64,000 nucleotides of DNA. Source: a virus. The notes under the pieces are model-generated. The model searched no databases. It was not told the origin of the DNA and saw only the letters and a program-made list of their open reading frames with translations. Location of the stretch: the UHGV virus genome UHGV-0179803. One strand, given 5' to 3'. Position numbers and translations under genes: made by a program. Below, one piece after another: positions 5,756 through 28,399 of this stretch; position 1 is the first letter of the stretch, and each line of letters begins with the position of its first letter.

Positions 5756-8700
5756 ATGCTTCCAATTCCTCTGTTAAAACTTGCTAATTTCCATCTGGAC
5801 TCGAAGGATGGGATCAAGGAACTTGCTGTTCTGTCCTACCCAATAGATAAAAGTGATGGTACTAGCAGCACAGTATCTTATGTAAACAGTCTTGCAATTC
5901 TTTATGCAGATGGTTTGCTCGTTCTGACAGGCGCTAACAAGTATGGCGAATGTGGAACAGGTAATCGCAACGAATGCATTTACCCGAACGAGTCGATCCG
6001 CAACATCGATCATGTCTGGAGAGCAGATCGTTCTTTCGTGGTTGAAACTTTTGATCATGAATTCTTTTACATCGGCTGCACAGCGGGTCTTATTGGCTCC
6101 ACAGCGGCTGGTGGTAACGATGTTTGTGTAACCCAGTGGACTGCACTACCTTCACAAATTACGACCACTCTGGGGCTTGATAAGCACCCAGAACGCTTGC
6201 TTGAAGTTTGCGGTGGGATGAACAACACTTGCTGGGTAATTGGTGCACCTGAAGGTGAAGGTATCTGGGATATCTACGGTTCAGGCAACAACACCTACGG
6301 TTCTTTGCATGTGGATAAAAACCAACATGCCAACCCTGTTAAAATTGCTGAAACTTCTCAGGATCCTGTAACAGGGCAGTGGAAAAACCCAGCACTAAAT
6401 CTGGAGGTCCACGATAACTCTGTGATCTATGGTGGCCCAGATGGCTACTGGATTGCTGGTTACGATTTCCTGCGCAATAATAGTGAGCTTAATCTGGTTT
6501 ATCCACCAGAACACGGGACATGGGCAGCTTTGACAGGCAGCAGTGAAACCTACAAATGGTTCATGTGTGGTCCGAATGGGGCTGTAGTTGCTACAGAGCG
6601 TAATCACACAGATGGTATACCTGTGTATGTATTCCGTGGACAGAATTCCTGGGGTGATAAAACCTGGCGCCCATTGAACCTCACCTATACCCATGAAGTG
6701 ATTATTGCACAAGGTCATGCTACTAACGGCATCTTCTTTAATAACGGTACAAAACAGTACAGAGGTTTCTCTCGTAACCTGTGTAACGATATTGGCTGGT
6801 CGTCTGCTGAAGCCAACCCTCGTGCACAGTTCCAGCACAAGCAGGCAATTGCTACAGCTGCATACGTCGAACAACGTACACCTGTTAGTTGGGCTGAGAA
6901 CGTATACTTCCAGGGCATCAACCGGGAAGGTTACTTGGGCACACTAACTGTGGTAAACGGTAAACTTTGGTGGTCCGGTATTCCTCGTGGCAGCTTCCCA
7001 GGAAGCAACAACCTGTTTGGAGGCCAACTCAATTCTCAAGGTTTTACACAGGTAGACCCGAACTGGATTAAGAACGTTCCAGTATCCAGTTTTGAGGTTG
7101 AAGAAGTTATTAGAGTCAACGGTTGGGGGACTGAGCGCCCTGTCAGTAACATTTATATTGGGGATACTGTTCAGCTCAGAATTAAAGCTCTACCAAGAGG
7201 TGCTACATGGTTTGTAGACAAAGTTGAGATCACAAATGCAGCACAAACTGTTGTAAGCGATCCTCTGTATACTGCAACCATTAACCACAACGTGTTTGGT
7301 GTATGGGATAGTATTGTTACCCAACAGAATAAAAACGTTGATCGTCGTGGACTGTACCATGTTAAAATCACCTACCATGATAAAAATGGTACTCACACAC
7401 ATCTAACCAGAAACATCAACTGGAACACGATTGTACCTGTGATCCCTTCGGATAGTACATGGTACACTCAAGGTCTGAGCCGCTCTTTGTCTTTGGGCAG
7501 CACAACCTATTTGGGTCTGGATACTGCACAACCTGCAACTGAAAATGCTGACGCTTTTAAAATCAGATTACACAGGAAAGATGCAGGCTCTGTGACCTAT
7601 GATGTGACACAAGAACTTTACAACCAACGCCGTGAAATGTATAACTTCCTGGTCACTCATCAGGCACTGTGGGAATACAACCCGAACGGTGCTGGTGGTA
7701 AAATGTATCAGGCCAACGAACAGAACGGGACTTCTCTGAACATCCACTCAGATAAAAACCCGTGGGCTACGCCTGAAAGACCTCCTAGCTGGGCACGTAC
7801 TCTGAAAGTTGTCAGCTACGACGCAGGTTTCTTTGGTTTGCGTTGGGAATCAACAATTGAATACTATGATGGTACTCACCAGAACATCGGGTTAACCCTT
7901 GGTGGGGATTCTGCCAGCACTTCACGTAAGATTGTCCGTACGCCACGCGGTGTGGATATCTCTGTTGATCTTGTTAAGAACAGTTATGGGGATATTCAGG
8001 CGCATGTAACACCTGCTGAGGCTGCGAATAATATATCTTATAATATTGCGGCATTCAAAGAGGATCCTCGCGTTGTTGGTGCGCACGATGCCGACTGGTA
8101 TTACACCATTACACCCACTGCTGATACTACCAACTTCATGTTAGGTATGAAACGTGACATGCAGAAAAAACTAGGTGTTACTGACCTGTGCTACGTTTGC
8201 ATTAAAGATACCCGTGTTAAAGATACGGATCCTGAAGCAAAATGGTTTACCGTTGACCCGAATACCATACGTAGTGATAAGTTTGTTAACGAATATATCC
8301 TGTGCGCTGGCGGTACTAACCTGAACTTGTTCTGGAGTGAAAACGCTGATAAATATTGTAGTTATGATTACTTACGTGATTATTGCTGTAACCAGTGGTT
8401 TACCAACGGCAACGGCTATGTGCCTCGCCAATGCCAGACACTGCCAGCCATCTTCACAGATAACCAGACATTTTTGCTGAAACAGGCTAATGAAGTTCAG
8501 GTTGATAAAAACGGGTATGATGGAACCAAATGGTTCTTTAACTGCTATGCTCAGTATTATTGGGGTCCTGGGGAGCTTCTCAGTGATGCAGGTTGCAATC
8601 TGATGGATAAAGAAATAGGCTCATGGACTCATATGAACCAAACCTGCAACTTTATTCCACAGAACGCAACATCTGAGGGGTCTTCAGTTCTGGATGCTTA

Positions 8701-16979: not shown

Positions 16980-17565
16980 TGCCATCTCCCAACAATTGAA
17001 GCAGAAGGTTGATACCTTCGTTTGGGTCATCATCCTCACCGTAGTGTTTGGCAGACATTGCATAGCCTTCACCATCCACATACTGTTTGATGTATTTGAA
17101 CAGGCTCGAACGCAGCATATCCATCCCCATCGGATCTCGCAGTAAGCGATCCAACAGTTTTGGTGCACGTTTTTCCATCACACAAGGGCCACCGTTATTG
17201 CCACAACCATTACGGTTAGTCAGGAGGTCAACTCCGAACTGTAGCAGCTCTTTCTTGTGCTTCTCGCGTTTTCTCCAGATCTTGACGTGCATTTCGCCAT
17301 CAACATCGTGGACCATGTTGCGAAGATCACTTATGCTGGGGTGCTCATTGTTCTTCAAAGCCCTTATCATTACTTTACACTTAGTAGTGTAAGTTTCTTC
17401 CCTGTAGTACCGTGGTACTGGGAAGATATACTTCTCGAATATCATCTTGAAGGCGTTGAAGCGAGAACTGGCAAAATAATTATCCCAGTAGTCCTTCCAC
17501 TCAAATTCAAGAAAAGTATCCAGATCCCTCTGGAGATTGTTAGTAAAAAATTCTACATTGCTCAT
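16972..17565 (-). CDS. hypothetical protein
   Basis: 197-aa ORF in the leftward operon; no motif recognised. Confidence 0.5.
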   Translation of the reverse strand: MSNVEFFTNNLQRDLDTFLEFEWKDYWDNYFASSRFNAFKMIFEKYIFPVPRYYREETYTTKCKVMIRALKNNEHPSISDLRNMVHDVDGEMHVKIWRKREKHKKELLQFGVDLLTNRNGCGNNGGPCVMEKRAPKLLDRLLRDPMGMDMLRSSLFKYIKQYVDGEGYAMSAKHYGEDDDPNEGINLLLQLLGDGNE

Positions 17566-17804: not shown

Positions 17805-18235
17805 TCCCCCGTAAAATATTCTTTAAGTTTTTCTGTTAAAAAGTTTTGTAATTCCTGCTCGTCGAGCTTCTCGTCAAAGTCAGCAGCAGCTGCCTCAACA
17901 CACATATGATAGATCGCAATTTCAAGGTCGTCAAGCCCCAACATCAATTCGACCATCATATTTTCATCATCTGTTGGGTGAGCCGGATCAGAGATCATAT
18001 CCATTGGTACGATGACTTTCCAGTCTTCTTTAGTCCCCACAGGACCTTGAATTTTACGGCTAATCTCTATCAGATGCTTGGTGTAAAAGGCTTCGTACTG
18101 AACAATCTCGTAGTTATTACGGTAGTAAACGTAGTCGAGGTAAGTACCCAGCCGAAGCTGGCATACTTCAACCCCAAACCACTCCTTCTTCCACTGTTTT
18201 TCGCCTGAAGATTGGCATTGGCGTTTAGTCAGCAT
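17801..18235 (-). CDS. hypothetical protein
   Basis: 144 aa; AGGAGA upstream of ATG. Confidence 0.5.
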   Translation of the reverse strand: MLTKRQCQSSGEKQWKKEWFGVEVCQLRLGTYLDYVYYRNNYEIVQYEAFYTKHLIEISRKIQGPVGTKEDWKVIVPMDMISDPAHPTDDENMMVELMLGLDDLEIAIYHMCVEAAAADFDEKLDEQELQNFLTEKLKEYFTGD

Positions 18236-18250
18236 GGCTGGGTTCTCCTG

Positions 18251-18502
18251 TTATTGACGAGCGTATCCGCAGAGGACGATGGTTGCATTAATTTCTGTTG
18301 CAGATAAGTCCCCATCCATAATTTGTAAAGAGAAATCTTCCAGGTCTACAGTGTAGATGCCTCCGTCATAAGAGTTATCCTCCATGATTAGCACGTTGCG
18401 TACTTCAGCAGCCACTATGATTTCTACAATCGTACCTGGTTTAAAATTTTTGAGAGGTTTGACTACAGGTTCAAGCTCTCTTAAAGATACAGATGTTGCC
18501 AT
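18251..18502 (-). CDS. hypothetical protein
   Basis: 83 aa from ATG (MATSVSL) preceded by AGGAGA. Confidence 0.45.
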   Translation of the reverse strand: MATSVSLRELEPVVKPLKNFKPGTIVEIIVAAEVRNVLIMEDNSYDGGIYTVDLEDFSLQIMDGDLSATEINATIVLCGYARQ

Positions 18503-18512
18503 AATGTGTCTC

Positions 18513-19964
18513 CTATTTAACGTTTTCAATCAAATCTATAGTTCTGCCAAAAGATGGCGTATAGTCTTTGTTACCACCTTCTGTCCTAATCCAGAGCGTA
18601 TTATACTTATCCCAACCGTTGCTGTCAACCTCTTTTTCAAAACCTGATTCAAGAAACAGGTCAGTAAAGATAATAACATCCTGAACATCAGACAGATGTT
18701 TATCCAGATATTCAAACACACAACCTGCACGAGTACCGAACGTAGACTTGATCTGGTAGTCTGGCATCTGTGCAATATTCTGGTGAGTGTATACCTGAAC
18801 ATCACCAACTTCTGTTGACCAACAGAACATCGTAACTTTAAACTCTTTATACAGGCTGCACAACCCGCTGATTTCTGAAGTGATACGTTTCAGAGTCCGT
18901 GGAGAGATAGAGCCTGATACGTCGAATGCCACCACTATATCAATCGTTTTCTCCTGGTTGCGACCTGGGAGAATAACAGACTGGCGATTGTTGATAGCCC
19001 CTCTGCTACGCAATGTGTGAGTTAAAGCACCAGAGCGACGGGCCGGACGACGATAAGTCATATCAGCTTTCCGGTGTGACAACATACGTTGACGAATCAC
19101 ATCCAGATAGTTGATGATAGGCTTATTGCGATTCTTGATCCACTCACGCACCTGTGCCGGACCTTCACCACCTGCCGCTTTCATAGCAGCTTCCATCATG
19201 TCACCAGAGTCCTGCATTGCTGCATCTTTCTCTGCCTGAGTCATTGCTGGTTGGTTGCCTTTTTCGTAGCCCATAGCTTCACTGAGGTTGTCAGACTGGC
19301 CTTGTCCGTCCCCCATGTGAGTATCTGTGGCTCGTAGACCACCGCCACTAGCTTTACCTGGTTGTTGCTGTTGCTGTTGTTGTCTTTCCAGGTCTGCATA
19401 AACTTTTTCAGTTATCCACCCGTGGTATTTCTTATCACAATAACAATATTCAAGAAATGCAAACGGCTGGCCTTTTTTCAGCTGTGTGCGAATCCCGTGT
19501 GGGAACATTGCACATGGCGGTTCGGCTAAATCTACCATCAGACCAGTATTAATAACGTGGTCAGCGGCCTGATTAAACAGGTTGTGATCAGAGAAGGCTT
19601 TACCACGGCTGAGGTGATCAGCAATGATGTGACCTATCTCATGGCACAGGAGAAAAGCAACCTCTTTAAGCGTTTTAGGTGCATAGAAAGCGTCCAGCTG
19701 TTCTTTCATCTTATCATCGCACTTAGGCAGAATGATAGCACGGCGTTCCTGGCAAACACCTATGATGAACTCTGGATTGTAGTAAATCCGCTTATGGTCT
19801 GTGGCGATAGTGTCACACCATGTGTGGTTCTCAACAAATTGTAAGCCTGACAGGAGCACACCGTAGAAGCTCAATCTTTCCATGAGCCACATGCGAGCAC
19901 CCTGAAGCATACGTAGAGCTTCTGGTTTCTGTGCTAAAATCAGTTCTGAACTTCTTGCGTCCAC
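18513..19964 (-). CDS. VWA-domain protein with N-terminal HExxH metallopeptidase-like motif
   Basis: 483 aa; GTG start 6 nt after GGAGGA; HEIGHIIADH motif; VWA MIDAS-type motif VVAFDVSGSIS; poly-Gln linker. Confidence 0.65.
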   Translation of the reverse strand: MDARSSELILAQKPEALRMLQGARMWLMERLSFYGVLLSGLQFVENHTWCDTIATDHKRIYYNPEFIIGVCQERRAIILPKCDDKMKEQLDAFYAPKTLKEVAFLLCHEIGHIIADHLSRGKAFSDHNLFNQAADHVINTGLMVDLAEPPCAMFPHGIRTQLKKGQPFAFLEYCYCDKKYHGWITEKVYADLERQQQQQQQPGKASGGGLRATDTHMGDGQGQSDNLSEAMGYEKGNQPAMTQAEKDAAMQDSGDMMEAAMKAAGGEGPAQVREWIKNRNKPIINYLDVIRQRMLSHRKADMTYRRPARRSGALTHTLRSRGAINNRQSVILPGRNQEKTIDIVVAFDVSGSISPRTLKRITSEISGLCSLYKEFKVTMFCWSTEVGDVQVYTHQNIAQMPDYQIKSTFGTRAGCVFEYLDKHLSDVQDVIIFTDLFLESGFEKEVDSNGWDKYNTLWIRTEGGNKDYTPSFGRTIDLIENVK

Positions 19965-20015
19965 TACGATCCTCCAAAGGGGGCAAAAGCCCCCTCGTTG
20001 TTATTTTCTGCTATC

Positions 20016-21050
20016 TTACACCTTTTTAAAGATGTTTGCAAGCTCTGCCATCGTCATGTTAGTCGTTTTCATGAGGTCAGTCATCGCCTTTTCCATCACA
20101 GGTGTAACTACCATGAAGTTGCCTTTGACAAAACCTTTATCGCGATCAGCCACCAGGATAGATTTAAGGCCGTCACCCAGACGTTCACCAGTCAGTGCAC
20201 AACATTTTTTCTGGTACACTTGTTTGAACTGTCCGAATGTCAGATCTACTTTCATGCCTATATCATAGAAGACCTGACAGTAGAAAGCGTAAGCCTGAGC
20301 AATAGCCACATCTGGTGGTAATGCCTGAGGTAGCGGTTTAGGCTCTTCAGGAGCGTCTGTACGGTCCTCAACAACTTCGGCTTGTACTTCTTCAACTTCA
20401 GCCGTTTCTTCAACCACAGGCTCACTCATGATGTTCCTGACATGTTTTTCAGCACGTTTGTCCATGAACTCACGTAATTCCTGTGCAGGTGTCATAGGTT
20501 CTTCCTCCTTAGCTTCAATTTGTTGCAAAAGTGCTTCACCACCCAACAGGCCAAGTTCAGCTTTGTCATCTTCAGAGCCATATTGGCGCATGAAGTTTTC
20601 GAAAGAGTATTCTTCTTTCAAGGCCTCCATACTTTCTTCTGACAGGTGTAGCATCATCTGCTGAACAATTTTACGGTCAGTACGGTCTTTAATAAGGACC
20701 GCATTCTTCTTATCAACCAGCGAATCCTTGAGTTCATTACACCGTGTTCCGACCACACAGCAGTTATGCAGAGCATACGCCCCGTCATCGTCGATACGCT
20801 CTAACGATGGGTAGAACGGGTTGCCTAAACCGTTCTCGTCAGTGTGCATATCAAAAGGAAGAAGAGTGTAGTCACATACACCGTCCCCAAGTAATTTCTT
20901 ACCGAAGAACAGCCACTCTTCCCACGTCAACGTAAACATGATGCCCCTTTTCTTAGCATTACCTTGTTTACGTTTATACTTTTTATTCAGCTTCTCCAAC
21001 TCCCACGGTTGATAGCAGCCCTCCAGATATTGAATGTGTGTCTTAGCCAT
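20016..21050 (-). CDS. hypothetical protein with acidic low-complexity linker
   Basis: 344 aa; first gene of the leftward operon; Cys/His cluster (ALHNCCVVGTRCNELK) that might be HNH-like, not established. Confidence 0.5.
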   Translation of the reverse strand: MAKTHIQYLEGCYQPWELEKLNKKYKRKQGNAKKRGIMFTLTWEEWLFFGKKLLGDGVCDYTLLPFDMHTDENGLGNPFYPSLERIDDDGAYALHNCCVVGTRCNELKDSLVDKKNAVLIKDRTDRKIVQQMMLHLSEESMEALKEEYSFENFMRQYGSEDDKAELGLLGGEALLQQIEAKEEEPMTPAQELREFMDKRAEKHVRNIMSEPVVEETAEVEEVQAEVVEDRTDAPEEPKPLPQALPPDVAIAQAYAFYCQVFYDIGMKVDLTFGQFKQVYQKKCCALTGERLGDGLKSILVADRDKGFVKGNFMVVTPVMEKAMTDLMKTTNMTMAELANIFKKV

Positions 21051-21084
21051 AGCAAATGTCCTTGCTTGTGTTTATGTAAGGCGA

Positions 21085-21113
21085 ACATTAGCATGAAAAT
21101 TAATTCTTGTCAA
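21085..21113 (-). promoter_or_regulatory. candidate sigma70 promoter of the leftward operon
   Basis: Minus strand reads TTGACA-17 nt-TAATGT upstream of the gene starting at 21050. Confidence 0.45.
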
Positions 21114-21126
21114 CTGAAAAATGTTG

Positions 21127-21155
21127 TTGACTTTTGGTTCATCTTGATCTATTCT
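21127..21155 (+). promoter_or_regulatory. candidate sigma70 promoter of the rightward operon
   Basis: TTGACT-17 nt-TATTCT, back to back with the leftward promoter. Confidence 0.5.
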
Positions 21156-21187
21156 TCGCCAATAACAGAACGAGAGAGGAACCTTTC

Positions 21188-22084
21188 ATGTTTGAGCATC
21201 ATATTACACCATTTGACCCTATGAGTCAAGCCCCAACAGATGTAGGAACAATACTTTCTTCTTTGTATGAGAGTATCCTGTACCGTCGCAGACTATTTAC
21301 AGCTTGCCATCCATTCTACAACTTCATAGCAAACGCGATCAATACCACACTCAACAGTGCAGGCTTTGACGATTTCCACTGGGTCTTCACTAAAGAAGAC
21401 AAACCGGACAAGGTTTTTGTAGGCAGCTTCAGCATGGAGATCAATAAGGCTGTGTCATGGCAGCGTGCAGGTTGTGTCATGTTCCGTTTCCAACAAGGTT
21501 TTGCCTCTATAGCGGAGCATCCTTCTTTTATGAACGGCATTGAAGGTGGAGAGAAAGGTTTCTTCAAAATGCTTGCAAAAGTATTTGACATGCAGCCTTT
21601 TATGATATATGTTTATTATAGCCTGAATGGCAGGAGCGTATGCTACTCTTCAGATATCTCTATTGATCTGCTTGACTTGCCATACGTTTTCTGCTACGAT
21701 GGAAAAATAACTAGCAGGATGACTGGTAATCAGAATGTAGCAGACTTCGCCCCGTTGCAGATTAAGTCACGGGAATACACAGCTTTGGGTGGAGAACCTG
21801 TTATGTTGATCAACAAGTATCACACAACAGGGGAATTTCTGATGTTCCAGTACCGGAAGCGGGATAGCCGGATGGAGTATGCCCGTGTCAGCTCAGACAC
21901 TCTGGAGTCATTTCAGGGTGAGGATGGTAGCTATACAGCTGAATCTCTTGAAGTTATGGAAGCGATGGGAATAAAAGATCAATTATGGGTTGACAACCTG
22001 TTGGGTAATGAGTTAGAATTACTACGTCCTATGTTGAAGTGGGACGAAGAAACTAAAGCTAAATACGAAGGAGACTTCCAATGA
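21188..22084 (+). CDS. hypothetical protein
   Basis: 298 aa from ATG (MFEHHITPF) after GAGAGAGGAACC; no motif recognised. Confidence 0.55.
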   Translation: MFEHHITPFDPMSQAPTDVGTILSSLYESILYRRRLFTACHPFYNFIANAINTTLNSAGFDDFHWVFTKEDKPDKVFVGSFSMEINKAVSWQRAGCVMFRFQQGFASIAEHPSFMNGIEGGEKGFFKMLAKVFDMQPFMIYVYYSLNGRSVCYSSDISIDLLDLPYVFCYDGKITSRMTGNQNVADFAPLQIKSREYTALGGEPVMLINKYHTTGEFLMFQYRKRDSRMEYARVSSDTLESFQGEDGSYTAESLEVMEAMGIKDQLWVDNLLGNELELLRPMLKWDEETKAKYEGDFQ

Positions 22085-22359
22085 AAAAACACCAGATTTT
22101 TCACGTAGGTGAAGACGCACAGGCAGATGCTGTATGGTTCGCAATGCACCACACAACGGATGACGAACTGGCTATGGGCCATGCATTCGTTAACCCTGGT
22201 GATAAACTGCCGTATCCTGGTGATTATGTTGTGGCAGCAATGGACGGTTACACTTTGTGTTTGCGGGTAACTAAAATCTTCCTGGATCCGCGCCACAATC
22301 ATCGTCTGGTTCTGGCATTTGAAGAAGCTCCTGCATATGCTCTGGGGGATGGAGAATGA
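22081..22359 (+). CDS. hypothetical protein
   Basis: 92 aa; ATGA stop/start overlap with upstream gene. Confidence 0.5.
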   Translation: MKKHQIFHVGEDAQADAVWFAMHHTTDDELAMGHAFVNPGDKLPYPGDYVVAAMDGYTLCLRVTKIFLDPRHNHRLVLAFEEAPAYALGDGE

Positions 22360-22634
22360 AAGTAGTTGTATTACGCAATCTTGAACCTGTGATGCTGGAT
22401 CAAATTACACTTCTGAATAAAGGTGAGTGTTTAGCTGTCTGTATCCCTGAACAAGACATAGCCTACCTGATGGGATGCTTACCGGAGAATGTGGATAAAA
22501 AAATAGCTCATTTAAAGGAAAAAGGTATAGAAGATTTATTGAAGCACGGGTATGGTGATTCTATCTTTGCAGCCGAAGAGTTCATCAATCCGTCTGAATG
22601 TGTAGCAGAATTTGAAGTGGAGATCGAAGAATGA
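22356..22634 (+). CDS. hypothetical protein
   Basis: 92 aa; ATGA overlap. Confidence 0.5.
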   Translation: MKVVVLRNLEPVMLDQITLLNKGECLAVCIPEQDIAYLMGCLPENVDKKIAHLKEKGIEDLLKHGYGDSIFAAEEFINPSECVAEFEVEIEE

Positions 22635-22897
22635 AAAAAGTTGTAAACGTTTATCTGAATGCAGAAGAAGTTAAAGTTGATGGTAGCCTTTTTGAAGTTG
22701 GCGATCTGATGATTATCCACTTCGTAAAAGAGGATAAAGGATACATCTCATTGAACCTGCTGGAGTATGTTCCTGAAGAGATGATGCCTACAGTGTGTCA
22801 GGCTTTGTATGCAGGTGGTGATTCTAAACCTCTGGCAGAGCTGAATATTGGCCCTAAAAATCTGGTCATCTCTACAACAGTAGACGTGGGAGAATGA
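22631..22897 (+). CDS. hypothetical protein
   Basis: 88 aa; ATGA overlap. Confidence 0.5.
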   Translation: MKKVVNVYLNAEEVKVDGSLFEVGDLMIIHFVKEDKGYISLNLLEYVPEEMMPTVCQALYAGGDSKPLAELNIGPKNLVISTTVDVGE

Positions 22898-23268
22898 CTA
22901 TGGCACAGTGGAACAAGACGCTGGATTTATCTGACTGGTGGGCAGGACTACCACTTGGGGATGGTACAATCCAGGTATGGACTGGCAATAATGTCCACAA
23001 GTTCGCCAAACGGATAGCCCGAAAAATAGCTGAACTCTACCCACGGCAATTAAACAAAGATTGCCCAGAGTATGATTGGGTTCTTGATGATGTGGTTGAT
23101 CACTTCCTGGCAATTCTCCCACCAGAGGAGTTCAACAAACAGGTTCACGCCTACATCAACGAAGAAACTGATTTTCTGGTCACACCTATAGAAGATTTCA
23201 ATTATGCTATGTCTGAGCTTTACGACTGGGCAGACAGGCACAATCTATGGGTGAAAACAACTTTCTAA
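22894..23268 (+). CDS. hypothetical protein
   Basis: 124 aa; ATGA overlap. Confidence 0.5.
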   Translation: MTMAQWNKTLDLSDWWAGLPLGDGTIQVWTGNNVHKFAKRIARKIAELYPRQLNKDCPEYDWVLDDVVDHFLAILPPEEFNKQVHAYINEETDFLVTPIEDFNYAMSELYDWADRHNLWVKTTF

Positions 23269-23283
23269 CACGGAGGTTGATCT

Positions 23284-23535
23284 ATGTCAAACAAATACAG
23301 AGAATTAGACTTTGACAGGGACTACGAAAAGTATTATCATAGCGGCATGAGGGGTGGATCACGCAGGTGCACCCCTGCATACTTCTACGCTAATCGGGCA
23401 ATTGACCCACAAGAAGTTGTAGCTTGCAGAATGGCTTATAATTTCGACATAGCGTATGGCATCCCTGTCTTCGATGTAATGACAGAACTTGAAAACTTTG
23501 AACATACTTACGAAGTAAGAGAGGAGCTTTACTAA
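23284..23535 (+). CDS. hypothetical protein
   Basis: 83 aa; GGAGG upstream. Confidence 0.5.
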   Translation: MSNKYRELDFDRDYEKYYHSGMRGGSRRCTPAYFYANRAIDPQEVVACRMAYNFDIAYGIPVFDVMTELENFEHTYEVREELY

Positions 23536-24728
23536 TGTCAAGAAATATTTTCGAGAGTGGGCAGATTACGGTTCGTGAATTGCCCACTATGATCAAGTTT
23601 GCCAAGCGTCACGGCAAATCTTTATTTATACTGGGTTCTCCGGGCGTTGGTAAGAGCCAGGTCATCAAGCAAACTGCCGATAAACTGTTTGGAGAACGGG
23701 AAGATAACCTGATTGATATCCGTCTGTCGGATAAAGACCCAACAGACCTGTCTGGCCTGCCTGTTCCGGTGACAGAGGAAGATGGCACTACTCGCACTGT
23801 GTTTGCCACACCTAGCTTCTGGCCTACTGACCCAGACTGGGAAGGTATTATCCTGCTGGATGAAATGAACCATGCAGATAATTTTCTCCAGAAAGTAGCC
23901 ATGCAGATCATGTTGGACCACAAATGTGGTTGCTACAAATTCCCGAAAGGTGCGGTGTTTGTAGGTGCAGGTAACCGTTCTGGTGATGGTGCAGTGCTGT
24001 CTGTGTTGGAAGCACCTCTGGCAAACCGTTTAACGATTGTAGAAGTTATCCCAGATGCCAACGTCTTCCTGGAAGACTATGCATTCTCACGAGGTGTACA
24101 TTCTTCTGTGATCGGTTATCTGAAACGCCAGCCGTCATCGATTGAGAACTATGAAGCAATGGCAGACTGCAACTGTCCTGCATTCGCCACACCTCGTTCA
24201 TGGGTGACTGCTTCGGATATTATGTGGGACCTTGATCGCCATCTGGTTTCAGAAGCTGAAGCCCGTGTCTTGTTACAAGGGACGATTGGTCACACGATGA
24301 TGTTGGAGATTATGACTTACCACATGAAGAAACGCAATCTGCCGGAGATTGGGGATATCTTTGCTGGGGCTGTCAAAGAGTTCAAAGGTCAGAAATCTCC
24401 AGACCTCATCTGGATTCTGGGTTCAGAAGGTTGTATTGGTTTACGCAACATGATGGCTAACATTGAAGTTGATGATGACGAAGTGGTTAGCAGTGCTGCA
24501 AACTTCCTGGACTACTTATGGAGTAACTTCCAGAACGACAACAGAGACTTCGTATTCTCTGTGTTCAAAGCAATGATTAGCCCGAATGCACTTGGCAATG
24601 CTATTCTGGTGAACAAAGAGCATGGTCGTGAGAAAATCATGGCTAAACTGATTAAAGCGTACCCTAACCTGATGGCTATCGTCAAACAGTTTGGGGAAGA
24701 GTTCCGTGACTTGTTAGCTAAGGCTTAA
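23535..24728 (+). CDS. AAA+ ATPase, MoxR/CbbQ/CobS-like
   Basis: 397 aa; Walker A GSPGVGKSQ; Walker B IILLDEMNHAD; sensor region VFVGAGNRSGDG. Confidence 0.75.
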   Translation: MSRNIFESGQITVRELPTMIKFAKRHGKSLFILGSPGVGKSQVIKQTADKLFGEREDNLIDIRLSDKDPTDLSGLPVPVTEEDGTTRTVFATPSFWPTDPDWEGIILLDEMNHADNFLQKVAMQIMLDHKCGCYKFPKGAVFVGAGNRSGDGAVLSVLEAPLANRLTIVEVIPDANVFLEDYAFSRGVHSSVIGYLKRQPSSIENYEAMADCNCPAFATPRSWVTASDIMWDLDRHLVSEAEARVLLQGTIGHTMMLEIMTYHMKKRNLPEIGDIFAGAVKEFKGQKSPDLIWILGSEGCIGLRNMMANIEVDDDEVVSSAANFLDYLWSNFQNDNRDFVFSVFKAMISPNALGNAILVNKEHGREKIMAKLIKAYPNLMAIVKQFGEEFRDLLAKA

Positions 24729-24738
24729 GGAGTGCACA

Positions 24739-25107
24739 ATGGCTGCATTAGGTAAGAAACGCCGTGGTAATTTCCTGGTGGTCTTGACAGACCATCCAGA
24801 GGAAGAGTATCATTGCAGATCAACACGGGTTATCCCAGTCCAGGATCGTGAAGGTGATGAAATCTGGGATGAATTAATGTTGACTTGTTCTGACAGTGAA
24901 TATTTCTTCATCTACGTTAAAGACAAAGCAGGTTTCTTTGAAAATGATGATCTGCTGCGTTATGATATTGCAGATATGGTAAGAGCTTGCCACAAAGACA
25001 GTGCTGAACTCTTCGGTCTGCAACTTAAGGATAAAACTTTCTTCTATCAGGACGAATGCGTGGAGATTTACAGGGAAGTGGAAGATGAATTACTCCACGA
25101 TAACTGA
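24739..25107 (+). CDS. hypothetical protein
   Basis: 122 aa; AAGGAG upstream. Confidence 0.5.
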   Translation: MAALGKKRRGNFLVVLTDHPEEEYHCRSTRVIPVQDREGDEIWDELMLTCSDSEYFFIYVKDKAGFFENDDLLRYDIADMVRACHKDSAELFGLQLKDKTFFYQDECVEIYREVEDELLHDN

Positions 25108-25166
25108 TACTAATCCACAACACTTTGCCCCTCTTACTGAGGGGCTAACTGCTATGGAGCTGACCA

Positions 25167-27182
25167 ATGATTATTAAAAGTGACCATAAAGAAGCAACCA
25201 TTCTCGGTAAGAGTGAAGTTACCACAGGGACAATTGCGCTGAATGCTGAGACGTTTGGCCTGATTATCAAAGGTATTTACAAAGATCCTTTACTTGCTTC
25301 CTGCCGTGAGCCTATCTTTAATGCTGTGGATGCTCATGTTGAAGCGGGTCGTAAAGATGTGCCTATCAAGATCCATACACCAACCGACCTTGAGCCTTAC
25401 TTCTCTGTACAGGACGAAGGCCTCGGCATGTCTGAAGAGACTGTACGCACAATCTTTATGACATTGGGCGACTCCACTAAGCGTCAGAGCAACGAATTGG
25501 TGGGTGCCAAAGGTATTGGTTCGAAAGCACCTCTGAGCAAGGTGGAAGCCTTTAACGTTATAAGCGTCTATAACGGCACAAGAAGCGAATATCTTGTCTT
25601 TATGGACAAAGGTATACCGAAAGTCACTAAAACGCGTAGCGAGCCTTCTACGCAGCATAACGGCATCACAATCAGGTTCCCTGTGAACAAAAAAGATGTG
25701 TCTGCGTATCGCCATGCAATAGCTTCATGCCTGAACTATGCTAAGTTTCCGTTTGAGGTGTCGGATCCGATCACCACACGGATGCTGGAGCAATTTAAAA
25801 GCAACATTGACTACACATACAAAAAAGATGGGTGGACTCTGTACATCTACCACGGCAATACTTGCTCTCTGGAAAGTCGTGTTGTGATGGGGCACCAGCC
25901 TTATCGTTCAGAGTATCTTGAATCTATGATAGATTATCCGCGTCTGGTGGTAGAGATTCCGATTGGTGATTGCGATATCAACCCTGGCCGTGAATGGACG
26001 ATTGAAGGTGATGATGATGGTGGGTTCCTTGAACAACTGAAAGCCTTTGTGGACGAAGGTATCAGTAAACGTGGTGAAGAGATTGAAGTGCTGCTGAATA
26101 AAGCCACTTCTGCTATTGAAGCTCGCCGTATCATTAAAGAGTCTGGTGGCTTCTTCTCGCGTCTGGTAGGCTGGAAGTTTATGACTGCTAAATGGAAAGC
26201 CATAATGCAGGGGCATACTGTCCCAGTTATCAGTGAGTTGCCTGTGTTTGTAGGTGGTACTCGGATTGGCGCTAACTCTCTGAAACGAGATATGTACGGA
26301 CCTTCTGAGTTTTCAGCAGGTCGTAAGCTGGTACTGAATGACGCAAATGGTAAATTCAACCGGATTAAATGTAACTATCTGGCTAATGAGACTAGTCGCA
26401 ACGTCTACTATGTAGAAGACCCATACCTGTCAGAAGAGTTGGCTAAGTATGTGGACGATCCATTCTACAGTGACGTGCTGTTCCTGTTGTCTGAGCTGCC
26501 TAAGCCACCAAAAGACCAACGTCAGGCGAGCAGTACGTATCAGCCGGGTTATTTTGTCAAAAAGCTGGATGAACACGGTTGGTTCTGCCGCGAACGCATA
26601 AGCAAGCAGGATTTTAAAGATATCAAGTATTGCATCCCGTATGATGGGGATATCCAAAGAGGCCGTAGTTGGTTGGGTGAGAACAATAACATCTACCAAC
26701 AGGATCCGGTAGTCTTCCGTGAGGCCTTTGGTATCCCACAGGATGAAGATGTTTACATGGTTGCTGAAAGTCGCTTGACATGGGTGGCAGAAGATTGTAA
26801 GATTATCACAGAGGTTGATGCAAAACCTGTTCTGGAACAGGACGCCTGGAACTGGCTCTTGATGAGAGCTGCAAACACGACAGGTTACACAAAATACAAA
26901 ATGCAACTGGGTAAACTGGGTGTGAAAATGTGCATTGACCCAGAAGTAAAAGAAAACGAGTATAAGGTTCGTATGTGGATGGGATGCTACTCGTGGAAGT
27001 ACAGAGATCTGGCTGACAGAGCAGATCATCTTGTGAACCTTCATGTGAAGTGTGCTCGCCGCTACATGGATGGTGTATACCAACGCTACCCGTTGCTGAA
27101 ACGCATCCATGGGGATCACTGGGATAAACCGGAAGTTATTGAATATATTGAATTAATGAAAGCTAAGAAGGAGACTGAATAA
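25167..27182 (+). CDS. GHKL-type ATPase protein, rIIA-like
   Basis: 671 aa; Bergerat-fold motifs N-box EPIFNAVDAH, G1 VQDEGLGMS, G2 GAKGIGSKA near N-terminus; followed by overlapping partner gene as in rIIA/rIIB pairs. Confidence 0.55.
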   Translation: MIIKSDHKEATILGKSEVTTGTIALNAETFGLIIKGIYKDPLLASCREPIFNAVDAHVEAGRKDVPIKIHTPTDLEPYFSVQDEGLGMSEETVRTIFMTLGDSTKRQSNELVGAKGIGSKAPLSKVEAFNVISVYNGTRSEYLVFMDKGIPKVTKTRSEPSTQHNGITIRFPVNKKDVSAYRHAIASCLNYAKFPFEVSDPITTRMLEQFKSNIDYTYKKDGWTLYIYHGNTCSLESRVVMGHQPYRSEYLESMIDYPRLVVEIPIGDCDINPGREWTIEGDDDGGFLEQLKAFVDEGISKRGEEIEVLLNKATSAIEARRIIKESGGFFSRLVGWKFMTAKWKAIMQGHTVPVISELPVFVGGTRIGANSLKRDMYGPSEFSAGRKLVLNDANGKFNRIKCNYLANETSRNVYYVEDPYLSEELAKYVDDPFYSDVLFLLSELPKPPKDQRQASSTYQPGYFVKKLDEHGWFCRERISKQDFKDIKYCIPYDGDIQRGRSWLGENNNIYQQDPVVFREAFGIPQDEDVYMVAESRLTWVAEDCKIITEVDAKPVLEQDAWNWLLMRAANTTGYTKYKMQLGKLGVKMCIDPEVKENEYKVRMWMGCYSWKYRDLADRADHLVNLHVKCARRYMDGVYQRYPLLKRIHGDHWDKPEVIEYIELMKAKKETE

Positions 27183-28399
27183 TGTCAAACTGCTCAACCG
27201 TATCTGTATACGTGCGTACTTACAAAACTCGTAACGATGCTCGTGTAGCAAAAGCAAAATACGAAAGTCGCGGCTTTCCAGTAGGTAAACCATACCTTCT
27301 TGATGGTGAATGGTGGATAGACGTACATTCCCCAGTAAGTTGCGACATTGATAATGAATTTATGGAAGTGGAATACCACTATGCAGAGTTCCCTTCTCGT
27401 GGGGAGGCTCGTAAGTTCAAAGAGAACTGCATGGAAGGTTCCACAATTATCGACCGTGGCCCTTATGCGACTGTACCGCGTTGGGTGGTCAAATACCCTG
27501 GCGATGTAGTAGGGGTATTACACTGGGAAAATGTAAGTCCTAAAACCCTTGTTTACACCCCAGCAGAAAACGCAGTGACTTACGATGTTGGCACTTTGGT
27601 GCCAAATAATGACCCTGTGGTGGTTATCTTCGGTAGCATGATCCAGATTATCACTCGTGAAGATACCTACACTGTAGAGTCTGAGGACAACGAAGCACTC
27701 TACAAAGAGGTATTTGCAAGAGTTAGTGCTAACGACTTCGATAGTGCTATTCAACTCATTAAGGACGCTGAAAAAGAGAGTAGTGAAGGTTATGAAGTGC
27801 TGGATGAAGAGAATCATCTTATAATGCTTGATGGTGAACTCTTCTACTACGGTGTACATCTGACTTCTACTATCGCCAAACGTATTGAAAAGGATGCAGC
27901 AGAAGGTACTTTGGATGACCGCTATATTAAGTTCTTGGTCCGTCTGCTTCGTAACCCGTCTGCTAAGTCTGTAGAAATGCTCTACGACTTTATGCAGGCA
28001 AATGATATTGACATTCTACCAGATGGTCGTATAGAATGTTTCCGTGGTGTCACCCAGCTACCTGACGGAAGTTGCGTAGACTACCATTCTGGTAAAGTCC
28101 CACAATACGAAGGTTGCTTTATCTCAATGCCTCGTAACTTTGTAGAGGATAACCCAGAGGTGGCTTGCTCTCACGGTCTGCACTGTGCAAGCGCTGAGTA
28201 TGCCAAAGGTTATGGCGTGTTAACTAAAGTAGCTGTTGACCCAGCAGATGTGGTTAGCGTACCATATGACTACGATTTTGCTAAATGCCGTTGCTGCCGA
28301 TTCGAAATACTCACGGCCCCTGCTAAACGTACAGAGGGTATCCCAGATGAGTATGTAGTTGACCGAGATGGCAACGTAATAGAAGAGATCTTCTTCTAA
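27182..28399 (+). CDS. rIIB-like protein (by synteny)
   Basis: 405 aa; start overlaps stop of the GHKL gene (TAATG); no independent motif. Confidence 0.4.
   Translation: MSNCSTVSVYVRTYKTRNDARVAKAKYESRGFPVGKPYLLDGEWWIDVHSPVSCDIDNEFMEVEYHYAEFPSRGEARKFKENCMEGSTIIDRGPYATVPRWVVKYPGDVVGVLHWENVSPKTLVYTPAENAVTYDVGTLVPNNDPVVVIFGSMIQIITREDTYTVESEDNEALYKEVFARVSANDFDSAIQLIKDAEKESSEGYEVLDEENHLIMLDGELFYYGVHLTSTIAKRIEKDAAEGTLDDRYIKFLVRLLRNPSAKSVEMLYDFMQANDIDILPDGRIECFRGVTQLPDGSCVDYHSGKVPQYEGCFISMPRNFVEDNPEVACSHGLHCASAEYAKGYGVLTKVAVDPADVVSVPYDYDFAKCRCCRFEILTAPAKRTEGIPDEYVVDRDGNVIEEIFF

Follow-up and report, generated by a model that had tools for sequence, protein, structure and literature searches.

A divergently encoded MoxR-type ATPase and metallopeptidase-VWA protein as a probable functional pair in a distant rV5-like phage

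We analysed a 64,000-nucleotide stretch of the virus genome UHGV-0179803 (the window), which represents a distant rV5-like phage (61-72% amino acid identity). Two of its genes, on opposite strands and with start codons 3570 bp apart, encode an AAA+ ATPase and a protein joining a zincin-like peptidase to a VWA domain. The locus comprises the following genes and candidate control elements:

18513-19964, minus strand: zincin-VWA protein, 483 aa (N4 gp25 / Bas54 0055 / rV5 ORF12-13 family)
19978-19995, minus strand: GC-rich mRNA hairpin directly upstream of the zincin-VWA Shine-Dalgarno sequence
20016-21050, minus strand: Srd-like "anti-sigma factor" gene, first in the minus-strand block and directly upstream of the zincin-VWA gene
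21051-21187, no strand assigned: intergenic stretch where the two gene blocks diverge, presumably a bidirectional promoter region
23312-23340, plus strand: sigma-70-like site TTGACA-17-TATCAT (11/12), a consensus match only, some 195 nt ahead of the ATPase start
23535-24728, plus strand: MoxR-clade AAA+ ATPase, 397 aa (N4 gp24 / Bas54 0063 / rV5 ORF4 family)
25167-28399, plus strand: rIIA and rIIB, which follow the ATPase downstream within its plus-strand block

Between the two genes the coding strand switches only once, at the intergenic region of about 21051-21187. This region holds only weak sigma-70-like matches (9/12); the rV5 annotation places promoter P11 at the equivalent position, and promoter P4 within ORF5, just upstream of the rV5 ATPase gene. 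At the position equivalent to the 19978-19995 hairpin, rV5 likewise has a hairpin, with different yet complementary arms. The Srd-like gene matched PHROG 3118 at 8e-90 and the Srd family PHROG 1400 at 7.6e-13, and its product is 64% identical to bas54_0056. The rIIA and rIIB genes (PHROG 612 at 1.1e-105 and PHROG 609 at 9.6e-54) are syntenic with Bas54 0066/0067. The ATPase and zincin-VWA genes sit in the early region. The initial annotation had correctly described a divergent layout about 3.5 kb apart, which is conserved across the rV5/PVP-SE1-like clade.

The zincin-VWA reading frame begins with GTG, preceded by GGAGG, and its product is divided as follows:

19386-19964, minus strand: N-terminal zincin-like (minigluzincin/M48-related) peptidase domain, aa 1-193
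19614-19643, minus strand: HExxHxxxxH motif HEIGHIIADH, aa 108-117
19548-19574, minus strand: second peptidase motif NxAxDxxIN (NQAADHVIN)
19293-19385, minus strand: poly-Q/Gly-rich disordered linker, aa 194-224
18531-18944, minus strand: C-terminal VWA domain with complete MIDAS (D348, S350, S352, T411, D435)

The Pfam families DUF2201_N (zincin, E=1.7e-30) and DUF2201 (VWA, E=6.2e-11) both matched beyond their curated cut-offs, and PHROG 1314 matched at E=1.8e-109; homologs were found in 516 phage records (tblastn), and identity to bas54_0055 is 60.7%. A profile of the N-terminal domain matched MJ1213 best (PDB 4qhf, E 1.9e-4), followed by the M48 peptidases BepA, HtpX and Ste24. In the alignment of this domain, H108, E109, H112, A133, D135, N139 and Y189 are invariant, and H117 is conserved in at least 90%. 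The H-E-H-H pattern is intact in 76/80 viral homologs, and the same count is given for HExxH..H together with a full MIDAS. Within NxAxDxxIN, N131, D135 and I138 are invariant among homologs. These two most conserved peptidase motifs are occupied by inteins in two homologs, one inserted exactly after HExxH (P0188) and one within NxAxDxxIN (P0223). Since the first His of HExxH is lost in three of nine cellular homologs, proteolysis is not universally required. The predicted model has a pLDDT of 81.9, falling below 50 at aa 201-224 of the linker, whose length varies among homologs; a D-x-H motif in the linker region (nt 19317-19325) contains the invariant H216. The MIDAS sequence DVSGS corresponds to aa 348-352 (nt 18909-18923).

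Features of the ATPase are:

23634-23657, plus strand: Walker A GSPGVGKS, K40 invariant
23757-23807, plus strand: predicted beta-hairpin between beta2 and beta3 (model strands 75-80 and 86-91)
23847-23864, plus strand: Walker B IILLDE, D109 and E110 invariant
23967-24200, plus strand: region with N147, R165 and R221, invariant in the alignment of homologs

Judged by position, N147, R165 and R221 are the putative sensor 1, arginine finger and sensor 2, respectively. The K-S/T-D-E-N-R-R pattern is present in 87/87 homologs covering all seven positions (89 homologs in the set). The predicted hairpin would fit the helix-2 insert that marks the MoxR/dynein/midasin clade. The protein belongs to PHROG 1297 ("ATPase", E=3.8e-101) and has homologs in 813 phage records (tblastn). 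Whereas profile searches recovered the DUF2201-type zincin and VWA domains, the ATPase itself stayed below every Pfam AAA gathering cut-off (16.1 bits for bpMoxR and 17.1 bits for AAA_14, against 27). It is assigned to the MoxR group through transitive homology and its predicted fold. Homologs at E 1e-37 to 1e-44 bear AAA_3 and AAA_5, and the predicted fold comes closest to CbbQ, dynein, NorQ, MoxR 2r44 and midasin. Given the Pfam and PHROG matches and the tblastn homologs, the two reading frames are not chance ones. The earlier proposals of an HExxH-plus-MIDAS protein and, with catalytic residues intact, of a MoxR/CbbQ-like AAA+ protein both held, and we assign the domains and families of the two proteins with high confidence.

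Of 97 related loci, 91 have an ATPase homolog no more than 10 kb away from the zincin-VWA gene. At 31 loci, including 9 of 13 cellular ones, the two genes are immediate neighbours (gap -22 to +122 nt), and in five of these the reading frames overlap, among them the locus of Thiothrix eikelboomii, whose chromosomal surroundings are not those of a phage. The usual arrangement in bacteria, N4-like phages and jumbo phages is co-directional, with the ATPase gene immediately ahead of the zincin-VWA gene; the pair is also adjacent in N4 (gp24/gp25), Ab09, 121Q and phiA019. The rV5/PVP-SE1-like clade stably shows a divergent split of 3.4-5.1 kb and keeps both genes, with all catalytic residues intact, down to 38% identity. 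Divergence of the two proteins is congruent (Mantel r=0.93; 0/2000 permutations reached r). With the conserved neighbourhood, this congruence and the published genetics of the Bas54 orthologs, the suggested partnership gained support, and the two proteins very probably form a functional pair.

The closest characterized relatives are Bas54 (Escherichia phage MaxBurger, MZ501093), with bas54_0063 (MoxR ATPase) and bas54_0055 ("putative metallopeptidase"), and rV5, with ORF4 (ATPase) and ORF12-13 (zincin-VWA); these are orthologs of the window pair. Synteny is complete, from the Srd-like gene through the divergent region, six small genes, the ATPase and a small gene to rIIA and rIIB, and the divergent layout is the same. 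Amino acid identity to Bas54 is 72% for the ATPase and 61% for the zincin-VWA protein, but DNA similarity is absent at the megablast level, and the window lacks the SleB-like hydrolase gene located between the ATPase block and rIIA. A gp24/gp25-type pair is present in every N4-like phage examined, and the function of gp24/gp25 is listed as unknown (PMC2784036). N4 gp24 (AAA ATPase) and gp25 (vWFA) matched the window proteins by hhalign with probabilities of 100 (E 3e-42) and 99.9 (E 9e-35). They are shorter (352 and 380 aa), gp25 lacks an insert of about 40 residues ahead of HExxH, and their genes are co-directional, 167 nt apart with the ATPase first, whereas the window pair is divergent. Neighbours of the pair in the window, rV5, Bas54 and N4 are Srd-like, rIIA/B, dCTP deaminase and DNA polymerase genes.

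Group 2.2 jumbo phages have the identical combination of a MoxR ATPase and a vWA cochaperone with an N-terminal metallopeptidase (Iyer et al. 2021, PMC7824862), and the pair of jumbo phage 121Q is homologous to that of the window. The same paper cites as precedent the viral MoxR-VWA pair p618 and p892 of Acidianus two-tailed virus; this archaeal-virus pair is without a peptidase domain and has been connected with tail development outside the cell, and ORF892 gave a weak structural match. MoxR ATPases with VWA partners also make up CbbQ-CbbO (Rubisco activase) and NorQ-NorD (nitric oxide reductase maturation), but their targets are metabolic enzymes, CbbO and NorD lack a peptidase domain, sequence identity is only 14-17%, and the window ATPase carries an additional helical region at its C-terminus (aa ~280-397). 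Midasin/Rea1 joins an AAA ring and a MIDAS domain, but not a protease, in one giant eukaryotic polypeptide for ribosome assembly. Minigluzincins (MJ1213, projannalysin) and M48 peptidases (BepA, HtpX, Ste24) share the strand and HExxH-helix core with the N-terminal domain profile (E 1.9e-4 to 0.03) over about 45 residues only; they are stand-alone or membrane proteases without a VWA domain or AAA+ partner.

The earlier view of an unknown function in phages now needs partial updating: in a 2025 preprint on Bas54 the ATPase ortholog was required against the defence system DS-28 (bioRxiv 10.1101/2025.11.20.689424). In its transposon screen neither gene was essential on K-12, where 60/64 and 81/86 TA sites carried insertions (~94%). 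In the DS-28-carrying isolate CFE311, bas54_0063 was depleted with a log2FC of -7.23 (q<1e-5) and bas54_0055 with -2.20 (q=0.009); these figures stem from CFE311 alone, as the sheet labelled "CFE303" repeats the CFE311 run. The depletion of bas54_0055 could reflect a polar effect on downstream genes, because bas54_0051 shows -2.28 (q=0.195). Validation against cloned DS-28 used a clean knockout of the ATPase gene, and the second validated anti-DS-28 gene was bas54_0140 rather than the VWA gene (same preprint). No homolog of bas54_0140 was found within the 64-kb window.

These observations suggest that the two genes encode two subunits of a MoxR-type AAA+ machine. The ATPase would form a hexameric ring, with the 483-aa protein as a VWA cofactor that carries a zincin-type metallopeptidase at its N-terminus. 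As in CbbQ-CbbO, NorQ-NorD and midasin, taken as models, an acidic residue of a specific target would be captured at the MIDAS metal site; the ring would engage the VWA subunit and, on ATP hydrolysis, pull on or remodel the bound target, while the HExxH domain would cut the exposed target or the adaptor itself. Such an early-region accessory module would be dispensable for basic growth and most likely used to neutralise a host protein, especially a defence-system component, as with DS-28 in Bas54, if the window phage uses it in the same way. In rV5-like phages an ancestral ATPase-then-VWA operon may have been split over one divergent promoter region with both genes kept.

Other readings of the pair were weighed against this one. 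The published proposal for jumbo phages is that the ATPase and vWA cochaperone assemble virion parts while the peptidase trims structural proteins (Iyer et al., PMC7824862). There the genes are adjacent, and in 121Q they directly follow a virion structural gene block; ORF892 of Acidianus two-tailed virus is also among the structural matches of the VWA model (rank 37). Since some 94% of TA sites tolerate insertions on K-12, the Bas54 pair is not needed for building infectious virions; moreover, in the window, rV5, Bas54 and N4 the genes lie amid early, replication and host-takeover genes outside the structural module, and bacterial chromosomal operons of the pair have no virion context. The ortholog data point instead to a dispensable, host-specific role, and an assembly function is improbable here. 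It is also unlikely that the two proteins are uncoupled in rV5-like phages, with the ATPase working, for example, with a small Bas54 0140-type protein and the zincin-VWA protein otherwise employed or being lost. Separate transcription units, the strongly unequal conditional phenotypes in Bas54 and the validation of 0140 as the partner gene against DS-28 favour such a split; the retention of both catalytically intact genes throughout the divergent clade, their tightly correlated divergence and the significant depletion of the zincin-VWA gene in the same host argue against it.

Wss1/SPRTN zincins act with the Cdc48/p97 AAA+ ATPase on proteins stuck on DNA. A comparable protease for host takeover or replication, aimed at a housekeeping host protein or a DNA-stuck protein rather than an immune one, would make the DS-28 phenotype indirect. 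In N4 and Ab09 the pair is surrounded by genes for nucleotide metabolism and replication (dCTP deaminase, helicase, DNA polymerase), in 121Q its neighbours are DprA-like and thymidylate synthase genes, and in the window the zincin-VWA gene adjoins the Srd-like anti-sigma gene. Yet the Bas54 pair carries no fitness cost when disrupted on K-12, a Pfam search of both proteins detected no DNA-binding domain, and the hits of the N-domain profile were to minigluzincin and M48 peptidases instead of SprT or WLM entries; this role is doubtful. Metallocentre maturation of the CobS/CobT, BchI/BchD or NorQ/NorD type, for a host or phage metalloenzyme, is very improbable. The ATPase fold does resemble NorQ and CbbQ, the partner VWA domain resembles BchD and NorD, and there is a weak match to a "cobalamin biosynthesis protein" PHROG (5.9e-5). 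This match spans only residues 53-131, in the peptidase region and not a chelatase feature; the zincin domain replaces the N-terminal regions of CobT or NorD, the Pfam search found no CobT, NorD or chelatase domains, and the conserved HExxH points to hydrolysis, not chelation. The earlier comparison with CobS/CobT stands only as a loose analogy, because no CobT-type domain turned up.

An accessory, ATP-driven, MIDAS-targeted remodelling and protease module that neutralises a host (defence) protein is overall the best explanation, with a probability of roughly 0.5; that counter-defence is its main role is a tentative reading. Counter-defence cannot be the original function of the pair, because it also occurs as a chromosomal operon in bacteria. 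The pair was already described by Iyer et al. 2021 (Viruses 13:63; PMC7824862). An ATP-driven motor with a zinc-protease, metal-dependent docking partner is a known and widespread two-gene set, whose role is only starting to emerge.

Both open reading frames lie exactly where the initial annotation had placed them, with the lengths and motifs it had described. The start codons of the two genes are on opposite strands with 3570 bp between them, and the sole strand switch in this interval is an intergenic stretch at about 21051-21187. Both genes belong to the early region, where an Srd-like anti-sigma gene and rIIA/rIIB are their neighbours.

Open reading frames and motifs of the pair
18513-19964, minus strand: zincin-VWA protein, 483 aa, with a GTG start 7 bases past a GGAGG Shine-Dalgarno sequence
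amino acids 108-117 of the zincin-VWA protein: HEIGHIIADH
amino acids 348-352 of the zincin-VWA protein: DVSGS, part of the MIDAS motif
23535-24728, plus strand: ATPase, 397 aa, with an ATG overlapping the stop of the preceding small open reading frame
amino acids 34-41 of the ATPase: Walker A, GSPGVGKS
amino acids 105-110 of the ATPase: Walker B, IILLDE

A Pfam search found two domains on the zincin-VWA protein in N-to-C order, both above the gathering score: DUF2201_N (PF13203, "putative metallopeptidase domain"; E 1.7e-30, 107 bits against a cut-off of 23.2) and DUF2201 (PF09967, "VWA-like domain"; E 6.2e-11, 42.9 bits against a cut-off of 26.4). Curated models thus bear out the DUF2201-type and VWA identities first proposed from the sequence. 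The N-domain holds an HExxH motif (HEIGH, amino acids 108-112) followed by H117, and the VWA fold carries the MIDAS pattern DxSxS...T...D. Comparison of the whole protein with PDB sequences by phmmer gave nothing meaningful, and a profile of the N-domain was required; its top match was the minigluzincin MJ1213 (PDB 4qhf, E 1.9e-4), the M48 peptidases BepA, HtpX and Ste24 came next, and the matches span the edge-strand-plus-HExxH-helix core. Across 16 homologs, H112, H117, D135, H216 and the MIDAS residues D348, S350, S352, T411 and D435 are invariant, while H108 and E109 are nearly so. The H-E-H-H set and the full MIDAS are kept in 76 of 80 viral homologs, and the last His is replaced by Tyr in three. 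The first His of HExxH is gone (QEALH, KQALH) in three of nine cellular homologs, which retain the MIDAS; since this residue is missing, some bacterial versions of the pair may work without proteolysis. The three come from bacterial MAG loci (L006, L007 and L013) and keep an adjacent ATPase along with the full MIDAS.

Two over-long homologs had been suspected to be Rosetta-stone fusions of the ATPase and the zincin-VWA protein; this was ruled out, as their extra length consists of inteins. In P0188 (794 aa) an intein with Hint and LAGLIDADG domains lies exactly after HEVLH, and in P0223 (733 aa) a Cys...HN/C insert without a Pfam match lies inside the NxAxDY motif; these are the two most conserved peptidase motifs. 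Inteins typically occupy the most constrained sites of proteins important to the element. Because inteins interrupt exactly these motifs, HExxH and NxAxDY would fit the active site of the protein. A literature search for a biochemical peptidase assay on any protein with DUF2201_N and DUF2201 found none.

Several database records of this gene call for correction. The common label "HNH endonuclease" (the name of PHROG 1314, which RefSeq also uses for N4, 121Q and Ab09) is an annotation error: there is no HNH Pfam domain, and zincin, linker and VWA cover the whole protein. The label "anti-sigma factor", also found on this gene, is the name of its neighbour. In the rV5 record (DQ832317, 7756-9217) the gene is broken by a frameshift into ORF12 and ORF13 and reads HGVGH instead of HEVGH; in other rV5-like phages it is one intact open reading frame, and both peculiarities are probably sequencing errors of the 2006 record.

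For the ATPase, neither Pfam AAA_3 nor AAA_5 scored above the gathering score (bpMoxR reached 16.1 and AAA_14 17.1 bits, against cut-offs of 27), and phmmer against PDB sequences returned only P-loop-level matches to ClpB and ClpC. The search for homologs recovered 3633 proteins; matches at E 1e-37 to 1e-44 carry AAA_3 (PF07726, MoxR family), AAA_5 (PF07728) and AAA, and the ATPase of the Thiothrix operon exceeds the AAA_5 cut-off (30.2 against 22 bits). The predicted fold is closest to MoxR, CbbQ, NorQ, dynein and midasin, with a helix-2 insert hairpin. K40, D109 and E110 of Walker A and Walker B are invariant in 33 homologs; N147, R165 and R221 are invariant as well, and correspond by position to sensor 1, the arginine finger and sensor 2. 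In a set of 89 homologs, all 87 that span these positions have the K-S/T-D-E-N-R-R pattern. Because the six residues are invariant and homologs carry AAA_3/AAA_5, the protein is, judged by its sequence, a catalytically intact MoxR-clade AAA+ ATPase. The MoxR-type assignment is upheld by Walker motifs, conserved residues at the sensor and arginine-finger positions, homologs and the predicted fold, with the protein's own AAA_5/AAA_3 score below the cut-off. We regard the family assignment of both proteins as very probably correct. NCBIfam models gave nothing informative for either. P0065, a full-length ATPase homolog of Salmonella phage SSBI34 (35% identity), is named "ribosomal protein uS19" at NCBI, which is an annotation error.

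By megablast, none of 50,697 phage records matched positions 18000-25200 at the DNA level, so the phage was placed at the protein level. The best matches were rV5-like phages (Vequintavirinae; 72% identical in the ATPase, 61% in the zincin-VWA protein), and metagenomes hold near-identical phages at 95-98% amino acid identity. The layout of rV5 is the same: ORF4, "MoxR ATPase", stands against ORF12-13 on the other strand at a distance of 3.6 kb, and the two are likewise separated by an Srd-like gene and a divergent promoter region. Bas54 (Escherichia phage MaxBurger) is fully syntenic from the gene below the zincin-VWA gene through rIIB. A SleB-like cell wall hydrolase gene in the interval between the ATPase block and rIIA of rV5 and Bas54 (L001 of our loci, 1980-2480; L098, 8859-9359) is absent from the window at 24739-25167. 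More distantly, the ATPase has a homolog in N4 gp24 and the zincin-VWA protein one in N4 gp25 (hhalign probability 100 and 99.9, respectively); the N4 proteins have been described as "AAA superfamily" and "vWFA superfamily" proteins of unknown function common to N4-like phages (PMC2784036). The N4 genes are adjacent and co-directional with the ATPase first, whereas those of the window are on opposite strands 3570 bp apart. Sixteen records (MG0656xx) named "Campylobacter phage" (~140 kb, host C. jejuni) also carry rV5-type genes, with identities equal to those of E. coli rV5-like phages, and their host label looks doubtful.

The initial annotation had proposed that the two proteins function together. 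We collected 97 loci with a zincin-VWA homolog (13 bacterial genomes or MAGs, 80 viral contigs and 4 reference phages) and scanned them with profiles of both proteins. An ATPase homolog was present, within the available sequence, in 91 of the 97, and in five of the other six the sequence extends upstream by less than 2 kb. Among the loci with complete 10-kb flanks, only L025 (IMGVR_UViG_3300045988_163358) has a zincin-VWA gene (44% identity) without a nearby ATPase homolog; its ATPase is either further off or lost. In 31 loci the ATPase gene is the immediate upstream neighbour on the same strand (gap -22 to +122 nt); in 17 it lies upstream within 2 kb, in 21 it is co-directional at a greater upstream distance (3.8-8.5 kb), and in 20 the two genes are divergent (3.4-5.1 kb). 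The adjacent form is found in 9 of 13 cellular loci, with overlapping frames in five, among them Thiothrix eikelboomii; the flanks in this isolate are ordinary chromosomal genes (amino-acid kinase, FAD oxidoreductase, UvrD helicase, TetR regulator and ABC ATPase). In N4, the N4-like Ab09, the jumbo phage 121Q and Aeromonas phage phiA019, the ATPase gene immediately or almost immediately precedes the zincin-VWA gene. Only the rV5/PVP-SE1-like clade has the divergent form, which is stable there at identities as low as 38%; six of seven representatives show a single strand switch between the two genes. Pairwise distances of the two proteins across 40 non-redundant loci were correlated (r=0.93; equalled in 0 of 2000 permutations), which fits inheritance as one module, with whole-genome co-inheritance adding to the signal. 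The locus survey, the clade-limited divergence and the correlated distances show that the divergent split is derived, and they make it likely that the genes form a functional pair, as first proposed.

A pair of this kind is known: the MoxR annotation in rV5 dates to 2006, N4-like phages have it, and the MoxR/metallopeptidase-vWA pair was described by Iyer et al. in 2021 (PMC7824862). Functional data followed in 2025 with the HIDEN-SEQ gene essentiality map of Bas54 (bioRxiv 10.1101/2025.11.20.689424). On E. coli K-12 both genes are non-essential, with 60/64 TA sites hit in bas54_0063 (MoxR ATPase) and 81/86 in bas54_0055 (putative metallopeptidase). The clinical isolate CFE311 carries a two-gene predicted defence system, DS-28, and on this host bas54_0063 was strongly depleted (log2FC -7.23, q below 1e-5); the sensitivity of a clean bas54_0063 knockout to cloned DS-28 was validated, as was that of the 99-aa gene bas54_0140. 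A search of the 64-kb window for a homolog of bas54_0140 found none. The metallopeptidase gene receives no mention in the text of the preprint, and only the supplementary table lists bas54_0055 as depleted on CFE311 (log2FC -2.20, p=0.0009, q=0.009), as 1 of 27 significant genes. This is the only genetic hint of a role shared with the ATPase; the depletion is much weaker than that of the ATPase gene and could be polar on downstream genes (bas54_0051: -2.28, q=0.195). Sheet S6 of Extended Data Table 8, "resampling_K-12_vs_CFE303", is identical in command line and values to the CFE311 run of S7, so that the specificity of the Bas54 phenotype for CFE311 versus CFE303 cannot be judged from it. DS-28 is a small, uncharacterised, plasmid-associated family about which we found nothing further, and neither of two other phage transposon screens, nor the CRISPRi-ART paper, has anything on this pair.

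Early-region location, dispensability on K-12 and the need for the ATPase against DS-28 point to an accessory, host-directed function of the pair, with counter-defence the most likely one. The reading as a whole, a MoxR-VWA-zincin pair with such a function, likely in counter-defence, has in our estimate a probability of about 0.5; that counter-defence is the main role is plausible but somewhat short of even odds. The proposed mechanism takes the MoxR-VWA systems CbbQ-CbbO, NorQ-NorD and midasin-MIDAS as its model. By analogy, the ATPase would form a hexameric ring engaging the VWA subunit, the MIDAS site would grip a specific target by one of its acidic residues, ATP hydrolysis would exert force on this target or remodel it, and the fused zincin domain would cut it. 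The sequence data establish the domain identities, the conserved motifs, the pairing and the orthology, whereas the complex, the capture of a target and its cleavage are inferred. The more specific proposal, that the pair is an ATP-dependent, MIDAS-targeted phage protease degrading or disabling an immune protein of the host (DS-28 in Bas54, perhaps other targets elsewhere), is speculative and on balance improbable. Linkage to rIIA/rIIB as a general counter-defence neighbourhood was dropped: these genes are near the pair in only 8 of 80 viral loci, restricted to the rV5-like and N4-like lineages. No defence system in PADLOC-DB matched the zincin-VWA protein, and the ATPase gave only a P-loop-level hit (PDC-M54A, 5.5e-4, 44 residues). 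A MoxR-vWA ternary conflict system was rejected, there being no beta-propeller or VMAP third component.

Iyer et al. proposed virion assembly with peptidolytic processing for such pairs, a role that may hold in jumbo phages, where the pair follows structural genes. That role is weakened by the dispensability of the pair on K-12 and by its non-structural gene context in rV5-like and N4-like phages. The separate operons and unequal phenotypes of the two genes suggest that the proteins have become functionally uncoupled in rV5-like phages, against which stands the fact that the whole clade has kept both genes with their motifs intact. The module may also be a protease for general host takeover or linked to replication. 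The CobS/CobT likeness raised in the initial annotation is no more than a loose analogy: there is no CobT Pfam domain, the cobalamin-type PHROG hit of the zincin-VWA protein is partial (5.9e-5, amino acids 53-131), and no cobalamin genes lie nearby, and the reading as a CobS/CobT cobaltochelatase was rejected. A chelatase-like role in the wider sense is unlikely, since the partner has a peptidase domain and is without CobT-, NorD- or BchD-specific regions.

The sequence around the pair has further features. A GC-rich hairpin in the minus-strand mRNA (AGGGGGC-TTTT-GCCCCCT, 19978-19995) follows the stop codon of the Srd-like gene and precedes the Shine-Dalgarno sequence and GTG of the zincin-VWA gene, and rV5 has AGGGGCC-AAT-GGCCCCT at the same position (7727-7743). 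Because the arms differ yet stay complementary, comparison of the two sequences suggests a conserved RNA element, with attenuation, transcript processing or mRNA stability among its possible roles. Within the 3' end of the zincin-VWA gene is a perfect sigma-70 consensus (TTGACA-17-TATAAT, 12/12; 18600-18628, minus strand) directed at downstream small genes (18251-18529 and beyond); single sigma-70-like sites are weak evidence, because the scan found 17 against 11.7±2.7 expected. The minus-strand open reading frames 16374-17168 and 16972-17565, neighbouring and partly overlapping, both match PHROG 12232 (unknown function) and look like tandem paralogs, with the start of the first probably over-extended. 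The gene at 21134-22084 likely starts at the ATG at 21188 and not at the TTG at 21134; its ortholog in rV5 and Bas54, at only 27% identity, is labelled "putative alpha 1-3 fucosyltransferase", and the product encoded in the window had no Pfam match.

For the window itself, the outcome is chiefly a correct annotation, with the labels "HNH endonuclease" and "anti-sigma factor" removed: it holds a divergent new member of the pair, with a split typical of its clade and nothing unusual beyond that. The modestly new point is that published Bas54 data show the zincin-VWA partner to be depleted too, which opens the hypothesis of a counter-defence protease machine to direct testing. The family is very large (19,532 cluster representatives at E≤1e-3, against 11,590 at E≤1e-10), and the phages that carry it include groups in therapeutic use or suggested for it, among them rV5-like, N4-like, and large Klebsiella, Salmonella and Pseudomonas phages. 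We know of few counter-defence mechanisms that are enzymatic and consume ATP, and a protease targeted at host immunity would be one. If the hypothesis is true, the N4 gp24/gp25 family of rV5-like, N4-like and jumbo phages would be a widespread class of enzymatic machine for counter-defence. It would then account in part for host range on clinical isolates, and would provide a function for the matching bacterial operons and a tractable model of MoxR-VWA target choice.
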